From contig NC_135888.1 in NCBI RefSeq assembly GCF_964194155.1, forward strand, positions 8,742,001-8,806,000: DNA of 64,000 nt, given 5' to 3'. The notes beneath the pieces are model-generated. The model was not told the DNA's origin. It searched no databases and worked only from the letters and a program-made list of their open reading frames with translations. Both the position numbers and the translations under genes were made by a program. The stretch comes from Cetorhinus maximus (taxonomy: Eukaryota). Below are positions 2,300-60,339 of the stretch, piece by piece; the stretch's first letter is position 1; each line of letters starts with the position of its first letter.

Positions 2300-2550
2300 T
2301 GAAAACAAAATACAGCAGATGCTGGAAATCTGAAATAAAAACCGAGAATACTGGAAGTACTCTGCAGGTCTGGCAACATCTGTGGAGAGAGAAACAGAGT
2401 TAATGTTTCAGGTCTGTGACCTTACACAGAAAGCTTCAGTAGAAAGGGTTCTGGTAAAAGGTCACAGACCTGAAACTTTAACTCTGTCTGTTTCTTTCCA
2501 TAGACGCTGACAGACCTGCTGAGCATTTCTAGAACCTTATTTCATTTTCA
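2300..2550. mobile_element. Inverted pair of Penelope-like terminal repeats with degenerate hammerhead motifs
   Basis: Left arm (about 2300-2430) is the reverse complement of the right arm (about 2445-2550). Right arm reads AGGGTT-CTGGTAA-A-AGGTC aca GACCT-GAAA-CTTT-AACTCT. Confidence 0.8.
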
Positions 2551-2917: not shown

Positions 2918-3654
2918 TATTTTGTTTTCCTTGCAAGTTAACTTTTTAAAATTCAACCTTCATACTTCATTTGTGTTCTCTGTCTGATTTATGTAAACTT
3001 AATTTTAAGAGCTTCAATGCTTTGTTTTAATTTTGATTCTTTCATTTGTTGATTTTGTATTATGGCAAGAGGTAGTGTTAGATTGCAGTCTAAGAATCTG
3101 ACAAGTAAAAGGTTTTGTTGATTACATTGTAGTTTTATCGGGATTAGGGAACAGTTGATGGGGGAAAAATTGACAGTGCAGTGTATGTACTGTTCCAGAA
3201 TGGCTGTGCTCTTAGATTTTTTGTTTACACAGAAAGTAATAGAGTGACTTTCCTGTTAACTGAAGTCCAGTAATCTTGCAGTGAGGAGTGCTTTTGAATG
3301 AACTCCTTGACAGAGAAAAGCTTAGGATAACTTAACTCTTGCAAAGCCTAATCCCTCAAAACACCCATGGGGTGGGGTGAGGGTGGTGGGTAGGGAGCTA
3401 TCTCTGAGTTGTCACTGAATCTTATGTCTTATCCTTCTGCAGGAGGGCAGTTAATTCTGAATTGTGGGCAATGGTGACCAAGCCTTCTAAGCATAGGCTT
3501 CAAACAACACATTGTAATGATTAGCACTATTGTACAGTAAATGATTTATTAAACTACCATAATATGAAGCAATCTTAATCCACGGATGGGTGGAAATATG
3601 GTGACTAGTCAACTACTCTACCATCTTCTCCAAAGCCTTATTGTCCTGTTGCAT

Positions 3655-5208
3655 TTATACGAACATATGAATTAGGAGCAGGAGTAGGCCTCTTGGCCCC
3701 TCGAGCCTGCACCGCCATTCGATAAGCTGATCTGAATGTAACCTGAACCCCATATTCCTGCCTACCCCCGATAACCTTTCACCCCCCTTGTTAATCAAGA
3801 ATCCATCTAACTCAGCCTTAAAAATATTCAAAAGACTCTTGATTCCACTGCCTTTTGAGGGAGAGAGTTCCAAAGGCTCACTACCCTTTGAGAGAGAACA
3901 TTTCTCCTCATCTTTGTCTTAAATGAGCGAGCCCTTATTTTTAAACAGTGACCCCTAGTTCTAGATACTCCCACAAGAGGAAACATCCTCTCACGTTCAC
4001 CCTGTCAAGACCCCTCAGGATCTTAAAGGTTTCAATTAAGTCACCTCTTACTGTTCTAAATTCCAGTGGATACAAGCCTAACTTGTCCAGCCTTTCCTCA
4101 TAAGACAACCCGCCCATTCCTGGTATTAGTCTAGTAAACCTTCTCTGAACTGTTAACGCATTTACATCTTCCTTTAAATAAGTAGACCAGTACTATACAT
4201 AACACTCCAGATGTAGTCTCACCAATGCTCTGTACAACTGAAGCATAATCTCCCTACTTTTGTAATCAATTCCCCTCACGATAAAAGATAACATTCCATT
4301 AGCTTTCCTAATTACCTGCGTACTAACCTTTTGTGATTCATGCACTAGGATATCCAGATCCTTTTGAATCTGAGCTCTGCAATCTCTCACCACTTAGATA
4401 ATAAGCTTCCTTTTTATTCTTCCTGCCAAAATGAACAATTTAACATTTGCCCACATTATACTCCATTTGCCAGATCTTCAGCACTCACTTAACCTATCTG
4501 TGTCACTTTATAGCGTCCTTACACCCTCTTCACAATTTACTTTCCTACCTATTTTTGAGTCATCAGCAAATTTAGCAACCATTCCTTCAGTTCCTTGATC
4601 CAAGTCATTTATATAACTTGTAAAAAGTTGAGGCCCCAGCACTGATCCCTGTAGCACAACACTCATGACATCCTGCCAACCAGAAAAAGACCCATTTATG
4701 CAAACTCTCTGCTTCCTGTTAGCTAACCAATCTTCTATCCATGCCAATATGTTACCCCCACACCATGAGCTTTTATTTTCTGTAGTAACCTTTTATGTGG
4801 CACTTTATCAAATGCCTTCTGGAAATCGAAGTATAGTAAATCCACCTTTTATCCACAGCACATGTGACTCCTTCAAAGAACTTCAATAAATTAGTTAAAC
4901 ATGATTTCCCTTTTACAAAACCATGTTGACTCTGCCTGATTACCTTGAATTTTTTCTAAGGTGCCCTGCTATAACATCTTTAATAATAGCTTCTAACATC
5001 TTTGCTATGACAGATGTTAGGCTAACTGGTTTCCTGCTTCCTGTCTTCCTCCCTCTTGGAATAAAGCAATCATATTTGCTATTTTCCAATCTAATGAAAC
5101 TTTCCCTGAATCTAGGGAATTTTGGAAAATTAAAATTAAAACCAGTGCATCAACTATCCCACTAGCCACTTCTTTCAAGACCTTAGGGTGAAGTCCATCT
5201 GGACCTGA
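3655..5208 (-). mobile_element. 5'-truncated CR1 LINE (RT domain to 3' UTR), frameshifted
   Basis: Minus-strand ORFs WIEDWLANRKQRV...QGSVLGPQLF..YINDLD...KFADD and KANGMLSFI...LYRALVRLHLE; typical CR1 3' tail. Confidence 0.93.
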
Positions 5209-19329: not shown

Positions 19330-19532
19330 TAGAAAATGTTGCAAACGCACCAGGCCAGTCCACTTCTGTGGAGACAACAGAAGAGGTAGCATTTGAGGTT
19401 TGGAGTGCTTTGCCAGAACTGAGGAAGGATCTACACCTGAAACACTGCCTCATTTGTCCTCTTTTCAGATGCTGACTGACCTTTTCAATGACTCAGCATT
19501 TTCTGCTTTTGTTTCAGATTTCCAGCATGTGC
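19330..19532. mobile_element. Old inverted Penelope-like terminal-repeat pair
   Basis: CTGAGGAAGGATCTACACCTGAAAC...agatgctg...tttgtttcagatttccagcat, preceded by a degenerate reverse-complement arm. Confidence 0.65.
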
Positions 19533-24657: not shown

Positions 24658-25033
24658 ACTGATGATCAGACATTCTCCTATCTATGTAAGCCTTTCCCAC
24701 ATTATATTATTGTGTTGATCTCTGTCCACATTGAGCAGGAGTATAAACAAAATGTTCCCTACCATTTGTTAAGCTAAATAGAGTTACTTGCAGTGAGTAG
24801 AAATCTGTTAAATGTTGGTACAGATTTTAGTTCAATCTCAGCAGTTTTACTGAGATTGAACTAAAATCTGTACCAACATTTAACAGATTTCTACTCACTG
24901 CAAGTAACTCTATTTAGCTTAACAAATGGTAGGGAACATTTTGTTTATACTCCTGCTCAATGTGGACAGAGATCACCACAACAATATAATGTGGGAAAGG
25001 CTTACATAGATAGGAGAATGTCTGATCATCAGT
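24658..25033. repeat. Near-perfect palindrome: 184-bp arms, 8-nt spacer, 2 mismatches
   Basis: 24658-24841 is the reverse complement of 24850-25033, checked block by block; spacer CAGTTTTA. Confidence 0.98.
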
Positions 25034-30560: not shown

Positions 30561-31639
30561 TGCCCACCCATTAAGCTATGTCCCAACAAACAATGATATT
30601 TCTTGAAGATTTGTTAATATTGCAGTAAAATAGCCAAATGAATATGCTCTAGAAACTTTTCAAATTGGAAATCTTTCTGCTTAACCTTTTCTTCATTCTC
30701 TGTCTTTTGAAAAATGTTAAATAAATCATTCAATGCATTTTTTCTTAAAAATGAGTACTTTATTTACATTTTTTATCCTGTAACTCCTGGACCTTGGCTG
30801 TTGATTTCTGGAGGATGGATTCACGAGCTGCTAAATCTGTTTTATTCTTCAACCAATTGAAACATAGACCTTTTGAAAATTGACATGGTCTGCCATTGAT
30901 GCAAGCAGATTGAGTTTGTATACAAATTTTGTCATTGGGGAACAGAGTCAAGCCAGTGCTTGACGAGTTACCATTCGCATAGCACTGGCAAAATACTGAT
31001 GAAATCTTGTATGCAACTTATTGCATATTAATGTAGTTAATGAGTTTAACTCTATTATCCAGTTGACCGATTCTCAATCTAACCTTTGTTTTTTAAGGGT
31101 GCACCGCAACACTGTACAATATAGTTTCTAATTTTTTAGCGTTGATGGCTCATGTCTCCTTTTTATTTAAATATGAGTGATAATCACTGTATTTTTGATC
31201 AATTTTGAAAAACCTAAATTTACACAGTTCCAGTGATCTGACACTTCCTGAATGTCAGATAAATTTCATTGTTCATATCTTCTTTAGATTAGAAACTTTG
31301 TGTGAAATGGCAGTGCTTGAGATAGTATTTAGCTCAGTCATAATTGCATGATGGGAATGCAAATGAGATTTTATTAGTTTGATGCTTTCACTGTCTCCAT
31401 GGTTATGAAGTAACAGTGTTGAGAATGTGTCACATTGCATCCGTGAATTTAGTAAGAGTGTCAAAACATGGCTTCAATTAGTTCTCTCTAATTATGGCTC
31501 TAGAGATCTTGTAACAGTATAGATTCTTATTAAGAAACACTTATGGTGATATTTTGTGGATAAACAAAAAAAAAACTTAGTTGTTGTAAAAGATCTAAAA
31601 TTAAGTAACCTATATAAAGAAAAAAAATGCCAAAGTTAT

Positions 31640-44644: not shown

Positions 44645-45870
44645 AAAATATTGCAGATGCTAGAAATTTGAAATATAACGAGAAAGTGCTGGAAATAATT
44701 ATAAAAAGTACTAGAAGTTCTCAGCTTGTCAGGCAGCATCTCTGGAGAGACAAACGGTTGGGATGTCAGGTTGATGACCTTTCATCAGAACTGGAAGAAA
44801 TTGGAGATGTCTGCTTGCTTAAAGGCAGTTGCAGAGGCAGGGAGAAAACAAAAGGAGGGAAGGTCTGTGATAGGATGCAAGGTAGGAGAGATAAATGACC
44901 AAAGGGTTAATGGTGCAAGGCTACAGGGATGGCTAATGGGATAACTAAAGCAACAAAAGATGGGTGTAGACTTCAGAGGAGGTATAAATGGGAAAAGCAG
45001 AATCGCCCCCAACAGTTGCTATCCAGAAAAATAGATGGAGACTGAGGTTAGGATCCGAAATTGTTGGGCTCAATCTTGAGTCTGTAAAAGTCCTAGTTAA
45101 AAGATAAGGTGCTGTTCCTTGAGTTTATGGTGAGTTTTGTTAGAACAGTGTAGGACGCCAAGGACTGACAAATCCAAGTGGGGGTGGAGAACTAAAATGA
45201 CATGGTGACTAGAAGCTCAGGGCCACTCTTGTAGGCTAAATGGAGAGGACCTGCAAAGAAGTTACCCAATCTGTGAAGATACTGCATTGTGTGCACAGTA
45301 TACTAAATTGAAAGATGTACAACTTAATCACTGTTTTACCTGAAAAGAGTGGAATCTTGGGAAGGACTGGTGTTACATGCCCTCTGTTTGCATGGAAAGT
45401 TGTGGTGGGAATGGGAGGGGATGTTGGAGTTACCTTGAGGAGTGGACTAAGGTTCAAGGATGGAATGGCCCCTTCAGAATGCTGAATGGAGGAAGGAGAG
45501 GTGATGGTATAATGCTGGAGGCAGTAGGAATAGTGAAGGATGAACTGCTGAATGTTGGTGGCTGGTGGGGTGCAAGATGAATACAAGGGGAACTCGATTG
45601 TAATTCTGAGAGGTGTGAGCAGAAGTGAGAGAAATGGAATGGACTTAATCGAAGAAGCCCTGTGATGCTCAACTGAAGAAAAAGGAAGACATAGTAGAAG
45701 TTCTGTAATGGAAGGTTGCATTGTCAGAAGGCGTGTGACTAAGATGGAGAAACTGGGAGCATGGAATAGAGCCCTTGCAAGAAATGGGGTGGAACGAAGT
45801 GTGGTCGAGGTAGTTGTGCATGCCAGTGAGCTTATAGCGGTTAGAGAGGTTGGCCACTTGAACTTGTACC
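44645..45870 (-). mobile_element. Decayed Penelope-like element (RT C-terminal region to terminal repeat)
   Basis: Minus ORF RYKLTGMHNYLDHTSFHPISCKGSIPCSQFLHL matches the PLE YKPTD.H.YL...S.HP...K.SIP.SQ.LR motif; terminal repeat with CTGATGA-A-AGGT catca ACCT at about 44755-44793. Confidence 0.85.
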
Positions 45871-52012: not shown

Positions 52013-52674
52013 CCATCAGCTCAGCATTTTCCCACCTTCCTGCCCAAGCAAAGCTCCATCTGTTTACAGGTAGGATGAAATGTAGGCCAATGTGTTCCAA
52101 CTTCATCACCTATCTTTGCATTGAGATGACATTAATAACCGGTTTGAATTGAATAGACATGCTTTCTATCTTCAAAATTTGTAAACTTTTATTACCCATA
52201 TGGATGCATCAGGCAACATTAATGTTGCATTAACTTTTAGATCTATTTCGATCAAACTGTTTAAAAGAATATTTTTTTAAATGATCAATAACGTATTGCT
52301 ATTATTTAGTCAGAACAACATGGAAAATATTCAACAGTGTAGTAGGCACCAGCCAACGTCTGCTTAGTTTAGTGGTGAATATGGTCATTATCATAGATTG
52401 CATTTTTAAGGATGCAGTAGAGAACTGCTATCGGTTAACTGCAGTCGATCTCACTGGGTGAGCAACAAAATCCAGTTGGCTTGAACTTCTCGAGCCTTGC
52501 CCAGTCATGCTGTCCTGCCCCTCCTCTCCCCACTCATTAAAGGCAAGCTAGTTCTTTATTTGGCAGTTTTAGATTCTGTAAAATGAGCAGTTTTGTTTCA
52601 TAATTTTTATTCATTTTTCTCTTGATACCTGCACCTTGTCAGTGAAATTTAGGCTGAACCTGAATCTGGTTTGT

Positions 52675-53199
52675 AAAAACAAAAAACTACTGCGGATGCT
52701 GGAAATCCAAAACAAAAACAGAATTACCTGGAAAAACTCAGCAGGTCTGGCAGCATCGGTGGAGAAGAAAAGAGTTGATGTTTCGAGTCCAATGACCCTT
52801 CAACAGAACTGAGTGTAGTTAGGAGAGGGGTGAAATATAAGCTGGTTTAAGGTGGGGGCGGGGGAGAGAAGTTGAGGGTGGGGTGGTTGTAGGAACAAGC
52901 AAGCAGTGATAGGAGCAGAGAATCAAAAGATGTCACAGACAAAAGGATCAAAGAGGTGTTGAAGGTGGTGATATTATCTAAGAAAAGTGCTAATTAAGAA
53001 TGGATGGCAGGACACTCAAGGTACAGCTCTAGTGGGGGTGGGGTGGAGTGGAAAGACTGACAAGGTATTAGTTGTAGATTTAAAAATAATGGAAATAGGT
53101 GGGAAAAGAAAAATCTATATAAATTATTGAAAAAAACAAAAGGGAGGGGGAAGAAACGGGGTGGGGATGGGGGGAGGGAGTTTAAGATCTAAAGTTGAT
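52675..53199 (-). mobile_element. Penelope-like terminal-repeat insertion with 15-bp TSD and hammerhead-like motif
   Basis: CTGAATCTGGTTTGT at 52660-52674 and 53200-53214; motif at 52810-52773. Confidence 0.9.
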
Positions 53200-56100
53200 C
53201 TGAATCTGGTTTGTGCCTGCCGACTGTGGCCTTGGGTGGGTTCTGTGGCACATTGCCAATATTGCACCCATTTGATTTCTGATGTGGAACTATATCCCAT
53301 GGGGTTACATTTTTTTCAAATTCTTACATTTAATATTTCTTTTAATTTGAACAGTTAGTTAAGCAAGTCTAGTGCCAGTTTATAATAAACGCTATGTGCT
53401 GATGATGATTGTTGTGATTTAGCCATTCTATATTGTAAAACGATTGCATGCCCTAATTACTCATTAAACATTATTAACCTATGATGCCAATAGCTCCTTC
53501 TTTAAGTGTGTTGTACTATTGTATTTATGTTACAACAAAGTAAGAAGCAATTATGACTAATATGAAATTATCTAAATGTTAAACTTTTATTTGTATTGAT
53601 CTAATGGCTCACAAATTTTCATCTTCTGATAACAACTGCAGTAGCCATGTTTCACATTCACAAATGCAATGCTGTGTGGATTAGGGCATTTTATCAGTGT
53701 GTTCTTCCAAGAATGTTAAAAATAGTGAATTGAACCACAGGCTGGTGCCTTATAATGGAAACACAGTTATTGTGGAAATTTCTCTAATTTGTAAATGCAA
53801 GTATTATTTTATCGGAGATAAACCACAGAGCCAGGAAAATTCAACCCAAAAATACTGAATTGAGGTACTTTTCTCTGAAACCTTGCAAAGGCCTCATTAG
53901 GGGCTTGTTGATCTAGTGTTTAATATGCAGATTAAATAGAGCCATTAAATATAGTTTAAAGAGATTTATGTGCAGACATTTAATTTTTTTTGAAGATTTT
54001 TTAATAGGCCCATTTACTCTAGCAGTATTAATGATTACTTAATCCATATTGAACTCACAAAGTGTGATAATTTTCTTGTGTGAATGGTGCAAGCCTGCTC
54101 AGGGGCATTCTTCTCTTAGTACCAGACTTTAGAAATGGACTTAATTAAATGAATGCAGGCTTAATTGTTTTCCTACTTTAGCTTACCTTTTACTCAACAG
54201 AGCAGATACAATAATATAAATAATTTTCGTTAACACCAGAATGATGGACTATTAGAATTGTTCAAAGATATTTGAGTTGTCATCCAGTGTATATATTGTT
54301 AAGTAAAATGAACAAGGAATGCTTTTTGTTTAAAATCTGTACAAAAAATGAGCTTGTTGAACAGTGCTTTGCATATTTATGGACCAAGATAAGCAAGTTT
54401 GATTTTAACTTGAATTAGCATCGTATACAATAGGATGGTTTATCACAAGGGAAAGCTCTATAGGATTTGTAATTACAACAGTTGGAATATGAATTTGATT
54501 TAAAATGCATGCAATAACATTCAGTAGCCATACAATGAAGCACAGCACATTCGGGGTAATAATGCTGCTTTTGCATTGTTTTGGTGCACTACCTGTGAAA
54601 GTTTGTTTTATTTGGATTTGAAAATGGGGTCACTGTAGCTCAATGTAGTCTTTTTGTTCATAGGTACAGTTGTTGCTTGTAAATGTTGAAGTACCTTTCC
54701 ATTGCATAGCATATAGATTGAAGATTTTTGTTCAGTTAAAGTGCAATTATATTTTGTGGAAATGTGTTTAAAGTGAAAAATGCACTCATATTATCAACTG
54801 CAAGAATGTTAATGCACTTAGTGCATATCAATGCACTTAGCTATTTAGTCAAATTGTTAGAAGACTGGGAGTTCTGCTTGGAATCTAGATGAGAATACTG
54901 ATCATAATAAATGCTGGCTGAATATGTAACTGGAGCCAGTTGATTGTCTGGCCTCCATGTGACCTGAAGTATTTTGGTATGGGACAAGTGGTAGGGCAGT
55001 CCTATTTCTGTTGGCATTTAAATTTTTTTTTTCAAGATTAAAAACTTTGTTTTTTTTAAAAATATTTTCTGCAGAAGTATTACACATCTCTAAACTGATT
55101 TAGCTTGTCAGTAAAATAACATTAGTCAGGGCATTTATACAAGTTCGGTGACATCAACTGAATATTAAAATCTGACTTGAGGTAAAGGTATCCCCACTCT
55201 CAATTCAAGATAGCTTCTGTCAGAATGTTGTGATGTCATGTAAGAGGAGAACACACCGAACCAATTAATTTTGTGGACAAAAAGTGAATGGTATAAATAA
55301 TGCGTATGTACCTATGTATAATGTGTAGGATGTATATGTTAGTCTTGGACTTTTATATTTGCTAAACTGTTTTCCACAGAACTTCAGAATTAGCCTAAAT
55401 CCCTATAAACCATGTTGTGAGTTTTAAAGCATTTTCTTGTGGGAGAATGTTCTTGGTATTTTGAAACTCTTACCCCAACCCGTATACATTCAACACACTA
55501 TATTGCTAAAATCAATGCGCTGTTCATTCTGGTCTACTAATATTTATGATTGAGTAATTTTAAGGTACTGTGTTTGCTACTTACCTTTATATTCCTTACT
55601 CTGTTGTAGACAATACCATTAAGGTGCTCTCCTTTTTTCAGCAAAATCGAGGACCTTTTTTTTAATTATTATTCTATCAGCACATTTAAAAATACAATGG
55701 AAAAAATGAAAACACAGTTTGGCGAGACTTGCAGAAAGAAATTTGGGCTCTTGAGAATTGGAACACTGCTGCTTGATAATTGTGCCTCTTGTTATAAGCC
55801 TGTAATTAACAAAATCGCAGAGTTAGGCTTTGTCACTTCATTTCCTTTCATCAGAATGAGTATAATAATGAACAAAGTTCCCTTGTTTCATATGCTAAGC
55901 TCTTGCTCTTAAACCCATATGAGTTCATAGGCTTCTATAATTGCTAAATTGGTTTGTTAGAGCAAGATAATAGAGAATTTCTTCTCTTTATAATTGGACA
56001 CTTCTTCCCTGTAGGCTAATGTATGCACATCTCTTGCATACTCAATAAGTTGCGCATTTGAAAGCCATAACTAGCTAATAACTGCTACAGTGTCATCAGA

Positions 56101-59100: not shown

Positions 59101-59768
59101 GGAAAGAAAAAGTGGTAGAATAATTTTGCAAAAAGAAAGGCGAATTTTAAATCAATTAACCTATTGTAATGATCTGGAAGGGAACACTCAAATGGCATTG
59201 AAGAAAGAATTATCTGAATCAGGCAGTCATTACTCAGTTGAAAGATAGAAAAATTCTCTTTTTAAAAAATTATAGTTTTCAAATGGAGCTAGTAATTACT
59301 ATTTTGCAACATCCTTGAAGAAGTCAGTGAAGTTTAATTGGAATTTTGACAAAAAGATCATAATTATTAATTCAGACTGATAAAATTTTGAAATAAGTCT
59401 GGAATAAAAGTGAAGTCAGCATACTATGTGGAATTGTGTATAACAGAGTTGTCCTTCACAATGAAGCTGGAAAACTGTCTAACTAGACTTTTGAACTTTA
59501 CTGATGTACTTAGCACCAAAGCTTTTGAATTATTGACAGTAAGACCCGAAGTGGAGTTAAGAAATGAAAACTTATTCCCTGCAATATTTTGTTGCTACAT
59601 CATTTATGGCAGCTGTTAACTTGTGAAATATTTTAGTGGTTGTTCTAAATGTTTCTGTGTGTATTTAAGACACCAGAAAGCCTTGTTCTTTGCCATTTGA
59701 GTTCGGTCTATCTCCGACGATTGACTATTTTGGGTGAATTGCTGACATTTGGTCCAGTATCAAAATAT

Positions 59769-59899
59769 TTCTGTTGAGGAGTCATACGGACTCGAAACGT
59801 TAACTGTGTTCCTCTCCGCAGATGCTGCCAGACCTGCTGAGTTTTTCCGGATATTTTTATTTTTGTTTTGGATTTCCAGCATCCGCAGATTTTTGCTTT
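59769..59899 (+). mobile_element. Short Penelope-like terminal-repeat insertion with up to 16-bp TSD, starting at the hammerhead-like motif
   Basis: TATCAAAATATTTCTG at 59758-59773 and 59900-59915; CTGTTGA-G-GAGTC atacg GACTC-GAAA-CGTT-AACT. Confidence 0.9.
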
Positions 59900-60339
59900 T
59901 ATCAAAATATTTCTGCCTGGAGTTGCTCTTTTGTGAAATTAAGCTTCTAGTCATTTGAGCTTTTTTTGTACTTTAGGCAAGTCTTAATTGGATTGTAGTT
60001 TTTTTTATATGATAGCTGCCATCAGTGAAGTGATAGTAAGATGCTCCAAAAAATATATTTTTCTCAATCTATAACTTAACATGGTTGGTTGGGCTGCTCT
60101 TTGATATTGAATGGAAAATTGAACAGACGGTTATATGCAATTAGTGTATTATGGCACTGAACTGATATTCTTGCAAGACTTCTGAGCAGAATTGTTTTTT
60201 CAATCATTTCATTGTTCAAGATAATAAGGAGAAAAATGTAAGATTCAATTTTGGAAAACCTAAAATAAAACTTATGGGGGGGAAAGGGAAGTGCCATTGT
60301 AGCTACACTTAGGCTGAAAAAGAACCCTAACGTATATCA

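Follow-up and report, generated by a model that had tools for sequence, protein, structure and literature searches.

Hammerhead ribozymes are already known from the pLTRs of Penelope-like elements (PLEs), and a natural replacement of the core base A6 by C is known from one phage; why PLEs keep their hammerheads is treated as an open question in published accounts (PMC11167929; bioRxiv 2021.04.23.441226). In a stretch of 64,000 nt from the shark Cetorhinus maximus (NC_135888.1, positions 8,742,001 to 8,806,000; hereafter the window) the initial annotation described a PLE insertion whose hammerhead carries U at position 6 of the core, and proposed that the variant is either still catalytic or repurposed. 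The questions raised by this locus are whether the change was inherited by the element's lineage or is decay of single copies, and what it has made of the ribozyme.

On the minus strand the window letters 52810-52773 read AGTT CTGTTGA A GGGTC ATTG GACTC GAAA C ATC AACT, which bears out the proposed layout of a helix I AGUU/AACU, a CUGUUGA core, an extra nucleotide and a 5-bp helix II (Table 1). An Rfam scan of the window at E≤10 gave nine matches, none of them to a hammerhead family, and the 38-nt motif folds no better than its shuffles (z -1.3; -1.35 to +1.25 in thermodynamic folding over the motifs folded), so that the identification rests on the core consensus, the family context and covariation. 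The motif patterns had 11,000-32,000 exact matches each in the genome, far beyond chance, against 0 for the reversed-pattern controls genome-wide. Another core register bringing back A6 was ruled out by inspection, as it breaks the G10.1-C11.1 pair. The family has the helices I and II, the extra base after A9, the G10.1-C11.1 pair and the palindromic 15/16 positions of the minimal PLE hammerhead (min-HHR), a mismatch in helix I being present in the oldest A6 families. C3, U4, G5, G8, A9, G12, A13, A14, the A15.1-U16.1 pair and H17 are all in place and invariant among the family majorities, 17 being U or C. The departure from the canonical CUGANGA core lies in A6, all younger families having U6 or C6.

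The family form GAAACGTC occurs in 31 of the 37 motifs compared; the window copy has instead GAAACATC, a CpG-type decay present in 3/37, which destroys the palindromic ACGU needed for helix III of the dimer. It is this copy alone, and not the family, that lacks the palindrome. The window copy is also solitary; it is likely inert and has no evident role of its own.

The motif belongs to an insertion of 523 bp (53197-52675), 5′-truncated in the end of the ORF and lying between 15-bp direct repeats, in agreement with the TSD-flanked Penelope insertion described initially. A DNA search of the genome with the element gave, as the best 40 of 1,109 candidates, copies of 99-100% identity. The ORF of linked copies ends in the same codons that open the window insertion and encodes YIDD, a CPRRRCNTC finger and a GIY-YIG-type motif (LVYCIRC..LLYIGET); Pfam RVT_1 was matched by 2/3 proteins (E 1e-5 to 2e-6) and Pfam GIY-YIG by 1/3 (E 5e-4), in both cases just under the curated cut-off. 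By these motifs and sub-cut-off matches the element has the single ORF of EN+ PLEs, with RT and, at its C terminus, an endonuclease of GIY-YIG type; one unbroken ORF was not found among 10 long element stretches. It also shows a pLTR, partial tandem or inverted 5′-truncated copies and an optional tail of 30-40 bp, and pLTRs, inverted 5′-truncated partners and tails have been described for PLEs (PMC11167929; bioRxiv 2021.04.23.441226). The CPRRRCNTC sequence precedes the GIY-YIG motif and corresponds to the CX2-5CxxC finger between RT and EN, a feature described as defining the Neptune/Nematis clades. This linker finger in the translated sequence places the element, in all probability, among Neptune/Nematis-type PLEs, the two being left undivided; a Poseidon-type label was dropped on the same ground.

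Insertions of the family end about 15-23 or about 49-60 nt after the conserved downstream block, i.e., with tails of two lengths, and the block itself is possibly bound by the element's protein. A likely ORF start (M-P-S-L-K-K) was noticed downstream of the tail (L301, minus strand, about 3110-3150; L302, plus strand, about 3840-3880), and in the same two stretches an AG resembling a 3′ splice site precedes the codons D-F-R-L-S-L. An intron leading into the ORF (CCAG/GTA) was considered and rejected: the GT is missing from the older families and the joint is not in the public contigs, which show presence only.

Table 1 Features of the hammerhead-bearing insertion and of related copies in the window (TSD, target-site duplication)
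Feature	Position	Strand	Basis or remark
TSD, upstream copy, 15 bp	53200..53214	-	profile search of window
Last RT/GIY-YIG ORF codons and stop (..N-F-R-S-stop)	53182..53197	-	same end in ORFs of L003, L006, L024
3′ UTR / pseudo-LTR body	52841..53181	-	94-98% identical to most other copies
TATA-like box TTATATTT, putative promoter element	52833..52840	-	kept in all families
Initiator-like CTCAGTT	52807..52813	-	putative start A 52810, first base of helix I
Minimal type I hammerhead motif	52773..52810	-	letters, fold layout, family haplotypes
Hammerhead helix I	52810-52807/52776-52773	-	AGUU/AACU
Hammerhead core CUGUUGA	52806-52800	-	C3 at 52806, U6 at 52803
Hammerhead extra A after core	52799	-	
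Hammerhead helix II	52798-52794/52789-52785	-	GGGUC/GACUC, 4-nt loop
Hammerhead GAAA	52784-52781	-	
Private G-to-A (CpG-type) change at position 16.2	52779	-	G in 34/37 family motifs compared
Predicted cut, after C-AUC	between 52777 and 52776	-	
Conserved block downstream of hammerhead, used as anchor	52728..52757	-	
Tail	52675..52727	-	
TSD, downstream copy, 15 bp	52660..52674	-	profile search of window
Short independent insertion, older U6 subfamily (GAGTC/GACTC)	59769..59899	+	starts within 2 nt of C3
Old decayed copy, canonical CTGATGA core	44705..44802	-	profile search
Old back-to-back inverted pair of truncated copies, AGGTC/GACCT helix II	2302..2536		profile search
Old decayed copy (19414-19531, +) with weak inverted partner	19343..19531		profile search

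A profile search of the window found nine related stretches, eight of them above the inclusion threshold. The independent insertion reported at 59771 does carry CTGTTGA with GAGTC/GACTC and a TSD of its own (about 59758-59772 and 59900-59914), the copy being cut off inside helix I; the canonical core attributed to an older copy was found at 44788 on the minus strand, and the older helix II AGGTC/GACCT in the copies at about 2430 and 2448. Both arms of the latter pair end near the front of the hammerhead. Inverted pairs (L062, L073, L100, L110 and the one in the window) often join a long-tail arm to a short-tail one, a combination to be expected if a single RNA is primed twice, once at each of its two reverse-transcription start sites. 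The window, which we take to lie probably within an intron of MVB12B/FAM125B, also contains a conserved NRON-like segment (31257-31542, minus strand; Rfam NRON match of 104 bits) and, at 24825-24866, a short near-perfect hairpin with weak mir-216 matches on both strands, below the gathering score.

Position 6 was followed across the genome with the exact pattern CTGxNGANRRGTCN{2,6}GACYYGAAACGT, counted in its A6, U6 and C6 forms. There were 15,543 A6, 31,870 U6 and 11,074 C6 matches, and a disjoint GGCTC pattern added 11,005 copies, with C6 in 97 of 100 matches listed (by eye), so that more than 50,000 pattern-matched copies have a U6/C6 core; exact-pattern counts are lower bounds and old families are undercounted. 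Of 101 copies chosen by the downstream anchor irrespective of the core, 39 had U at position 6, 27 had C, 5 had A and 3 had G, the other 27 being truncated or unreadable there. The 68 copies of the older tail type had A in 34 and G in one, and 33 were unreadable or lacked the position. A tree of 68 out of 71 long copies (hammerhead excluded, three chimeric or divergent rows dropped), with the root assumed at the long-tipped CUGAAGA family, gave a ladder from CUGAAGA through CUGAUGA and CUGUUGA with GAGUC to CUGUUGA with GGGUC, then mixed U6/C6 families and finally CUGCCGA and CUGCUGA with GGGCC; another tree had the same order. One A6 copy is placed with the U6 copies and, conversely, one U6 copy with those having A6; none of the 44 copies of the younger clade has A6, and switches between U and C at position 6 occur repeatedly. 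The median divergence of copies from their family majority (4-12 copies per family) is 4-7% in A6 families, 3.5% in early U6, 1.4% in the window's subfamily and 0.2-2.6% in the latest C6 families. In public contigs, presumably of RNA and uninformative on starts and ends, the loose-end consensus is U6 or C6 in three organisms (A, B and C) and A6 in a fourth (D), one of which may be the source species; this evidence is weak.

U6 is thus inherited, and the order A6, U6, C6 is shown for the source lineage. The annotators' view that A6U is not decay, and that the lineage was recently active, stands on the tree order, the U6 copy number, the low divergence of the window's subfamily and the core of the young subfamily, which is CUGUUGA and not CUGANGA. 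The further step to C in the youngest families, found only now, makes the variant a change of A6 to a pyrimidine. The claim that helix II covaries held in part: GGGUC/GACUC and GAGUC/GACUC differ on one side (G-U against A-U), which is not compensatory, and the two-sided cases are the old AGGUC/GACCU and the youngest GGGCC/GGCUC.

How the motif sits in the element's RNA can be read from the insertion ends. Insertion 5′ ends cluster at -8..0, counted from C3, in the first bases of helix I: 14 of the 101 anchor-chosen copies end there compared with 8 in the 37 nt at -45..-9 (p 8e-6), as do 26 of the 68 older-tail copies compared with 2 (p 9e-17), although the reference panel for the latter set had only two members of its own. 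Every family has a TATA-like box some 30 nt upstream of the A in AGUU, and the sequence CTCAGTT at the start matches the initiator (Inr) consensus. Transcription would accordingly start at the first base of helix I, and reverse transcription primed at the 5′ tail would run off the RNA end there; given the pile-up and the box behind it, the motif is likely the capped start of the element RNA. A 3′ splice site before helix I (an AG after a pyrimidine tract) was judged less likely, since solo copies whose TSD is convincing carry no more than 0-26 nt of filler (10 cases; in four others short inverted fragments of the element are present) and an upstream exon common to them was not found. More than 45 nt upstream of the core are reached by 59/101 mostly U6/C6 copies and by 17/68 of the A6 set; the longer U6/C6 copies could reflect more intact long templates after the loss of A6, or age together with the poor reference panel.

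Cutting by the hammerhead would be expected to leave breakpoints at the cut site. Of 100 matches listed for 702 copies without GAAA, 90 were mapped and three internal indels were dropped; in the U6/C6 families breakpoints are flat from +27 to +40, with no pile-up at the cut (14/80 at +30/31, p 0.34). Nor was there a pile-up among the older A6-type copies (120 matches at +31 against 118 at +34), of which the script called 13/30 and 20/30 sampled loci truncations, several being by eye internal deletions or DNA-transposon insertions. The genome thus records no cutting in A6 or in U6/C6 families; the breakpoint test cannot compare A6 with U6, and the insertion templates in both were uncut RNA. A further set of copies, dominated by indels and transposon insertions, was left out of the count. 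GC-rich elements (about 630-700 bp, short TIRs, a 3-bp GTT/ATT duplication), presumably PIF/Harbinger-like MITEs, were repeatedly seen inside older copies, e.g. L288 and L289. They sit at the hammerhead AAAC-GTT-AAC, on the cleavage triplet, with both halves found in 2/8 loci checked, and about a quarter of the 100 matches listed resemble such insertions by eye; the cleavage triplet is possibly a hot spot as a DNA target site.

As to whether the variant is still catalytic or repurposed, the best explanation, to which we give a probability of roughly 0.55, is an attenuated hammerhead that is still under selection: by replacing the core A6 with U and later C, the source lineage would have obtained a much slower self-cutter. 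A cut at the 5′ copy would cost the RNA its cap and first 34-35 nt, and a cut at the downstream copy would leave the ORF body without the tail at which reverse transcription begins. Since both would be costly to the element, most templates would be uncut RNA and a mutation that slows cutting would be tolerated or favoured; slower cutting probably costs the element little and may help it. The residual cut, dimer- and probably protein-assisted, may be self-limiting or late in the cycle, and would keep selection on the other core bases. Published data indicate that changes at position 6 are harmful, not always lethal. The natural C6 hammerhead of Bcep176 has a kobs under 0.1 per min (PMC3088659); activity of A6C can still be detected in Mg2+, at a low level, and is almost normal in Mn2+ (PMC3088659, PMC7151607), the mutant dropping by orders of magnitude at 0.3 mM Mg2+ and not with Mn2+ (PMC7151607). 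Single mutants in the CUGA turn are for the most part poorly active (PMC9901934). G5 and A6 stack on the outer side of that turn, and minimal PLE hammerheads are described as slow already as dimers. For U6 the core is predicted to pair with AACG in a rod hiding the helix III strand in 4/4 U6 motifs folded alone, a rod absent when 139 nt are folded; if formed, it would lower activity further.

None of the 14 invariant hammerhead sites varies among the seven post-A6 families, compared with 50/245 upstream UTR sites, a weak test (binomial p 0.04, Fisher p 0.08); variation was found at 14/40 promoter, 5/8 free hammerhead and 5/47 downstream block sites. As that block is conserved and is no ribozyme, a general constraint on the 5′ end could also explain the unchanged core. 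Since the loss of A6 about 0.3-0.4 substitutions per site have accumulated outside the motif (a branch-length sum, inflated by poly-C tracts). Four helix changes followed the loss, and every one keeps pairing: among them are 10.2 A-U to G-U, 1.1 U-A to U-G, and the compensatory change of 10.4/11.4 in helix II from U-A to C-G, with 94 of 100 matches listed fully compensated and six being U-G intermediates (by eye). In 25 hand-picked family haplotypes helix II is paired to 100% and helix I to 96%, against at most 49% in slid controls, and two pairs are changed on both sides; the rows are related and were chosen via a helix-shaped pattern, so the pairing is support and not a significance test of R-scape grade. 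The hammerhead positions that vary are 6, 7, loop II and 17, the last staying U or C, and the unchanged set (C3, U4, G5, G8, A9, G12-A14, ACGU) is exactly the catalytic one. No linked second-site core change accompanying U6 was found among the family majorities. The alternation of U and C at position 6 itself looks as at a site freed from selection.

The same constraint could arise if the U6/C6 motif does not cut at all and its helices and remaining core are kept for another purpose, such as protein binding, promoter function downstream of the start or RNA stability, a possible reading that we find clearly less convincing than attenuation. The first 38 nt predicted for the transcript overlap the motif, the adjoining downstream block is conserved and is no ribozyme, no cut-site signal was found in U6/C6 families, and the predicted rod of U6 would be inhibitory; moreover, Naiad PLEs proliferate without hammerheads (bioRxiv 2021.04.23.441226) and catalytic mutants of the anole hammerhead insert normally in vitro (PMC11167929). 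Against a mere scaffold speak the unchanged sites, which are exactly the catalytic ones, variation being found at 6, 7 and 17 and in loop II, and the residual activity of natural A6C (PMC3088659, PMC7151607). Neutral decay, in which the ribozyme had become useless, A6 happened to be the core base that drifted first and the time since then was too short for the others to follow, we consider improbable: the constraint test with its p of 0.04-0.08 and the toggling of U and C would allow it, whereas seven families with that much change outside the motif and no other core change, and a two-step compensatory change in helix II, speak against it. Slightly less probable still is that in vivo the element's protein, Mn2+ or another cation, or dimer context makes up fully for U6/C6, so that it cuts as efficiently as A6; rescue of A6C by Mn2+ (PMC7151607) and the protein-assisted anole PLE hammerhead (PMC11167929) speak for it, but U6 lacks a linked second-site core change and insertions derive from uncut RNA.

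If the preferred reading of an attenuated hammerhead is carried one step further, a retroelement lineage may have tuned down its own ribozyme and thereby raised its copy output, selection keeping a leaky or metal/protein-gated hammerhead; this we put forward only tentatively. Were it true, the successive families would form a natural dose series from which the purpose of PLE hammerheads could be read. One lineage here holds near-identical natural A6, U6 and C6 versions whose order is dated and whose proliferation is known, so that cleavage rate can be compared with genome success; L035 (A6) and L061 (U6), and likewise L064 (U6) and L062 (C6), are haplotype pairs in which position 6 is the sole difference. 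In practice, a hammerhead search that fixes the core as CUGANGA overlooks most of the young copies in this genome.

The closest relatives of the motif are the min-HHRs of metazoan PLE pLTRs (Cervera and De la Peña 2014, PMC4209133), with which it shares type I topology, the lack of helix III, the palindromic 15.1-16.1 (ACGU), the extra base between 9 and 10.1, G10.1-C11.1, a short helix I and the location in the pLTR of an RT/GIY-YIG element. It differs in A6, replaced here by U or C, the core variant named in the available part of that paper being U3-A8; the descriptor as given there fixed the catalytic boxes and would probably have missed the U6/C6 variant. With the PLE-associated small hammerhead variants of Lünse, Weinberg and Breaker, as summarized in a review (PMC6765202), the diminished stem III and dimer cleavage are shared. 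Outside the Lünse alignment, figures and some supplements, neither natural A6U nor a core variant of a shark PLE turned up in a search of the literature. The anole hammerhead of PAc, a Poseidon element of Anolis (Frangieh 2024, PMC11167929), depends on its protein and is not required for insertion in vitro; as here, two reverse-transcription start sites give the tail, the hammerhead lies upstream of both and the template RNA is uncut. PAc belongs, however, to the Penelope/Poseidon clade and its ORF starts inside the hammerhead (PMC11167929), whereas the shark element has a CX4CxxC linker finger and a likely ATG about 70 nt after the hammerhead's downstream tail. The natural loss of A6 is shared with phage Bcep176 (Perreault 2011, PMC3088659; Naghdi 2020, PMC7151607), and the shark C6 families have the same heptamer CUGCUGA, or CUGCCGA. 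Bcep176 is a single phage motif as far as these sources describe it, while the shark change, which started out as U, is present on a minimal dimer-type scaffold and in retroelement copies numbering tens of thousands; the U6/C6 hammerhead of the shark PLE, a real inherited variant, would make A6U one more of the few natural core variants.
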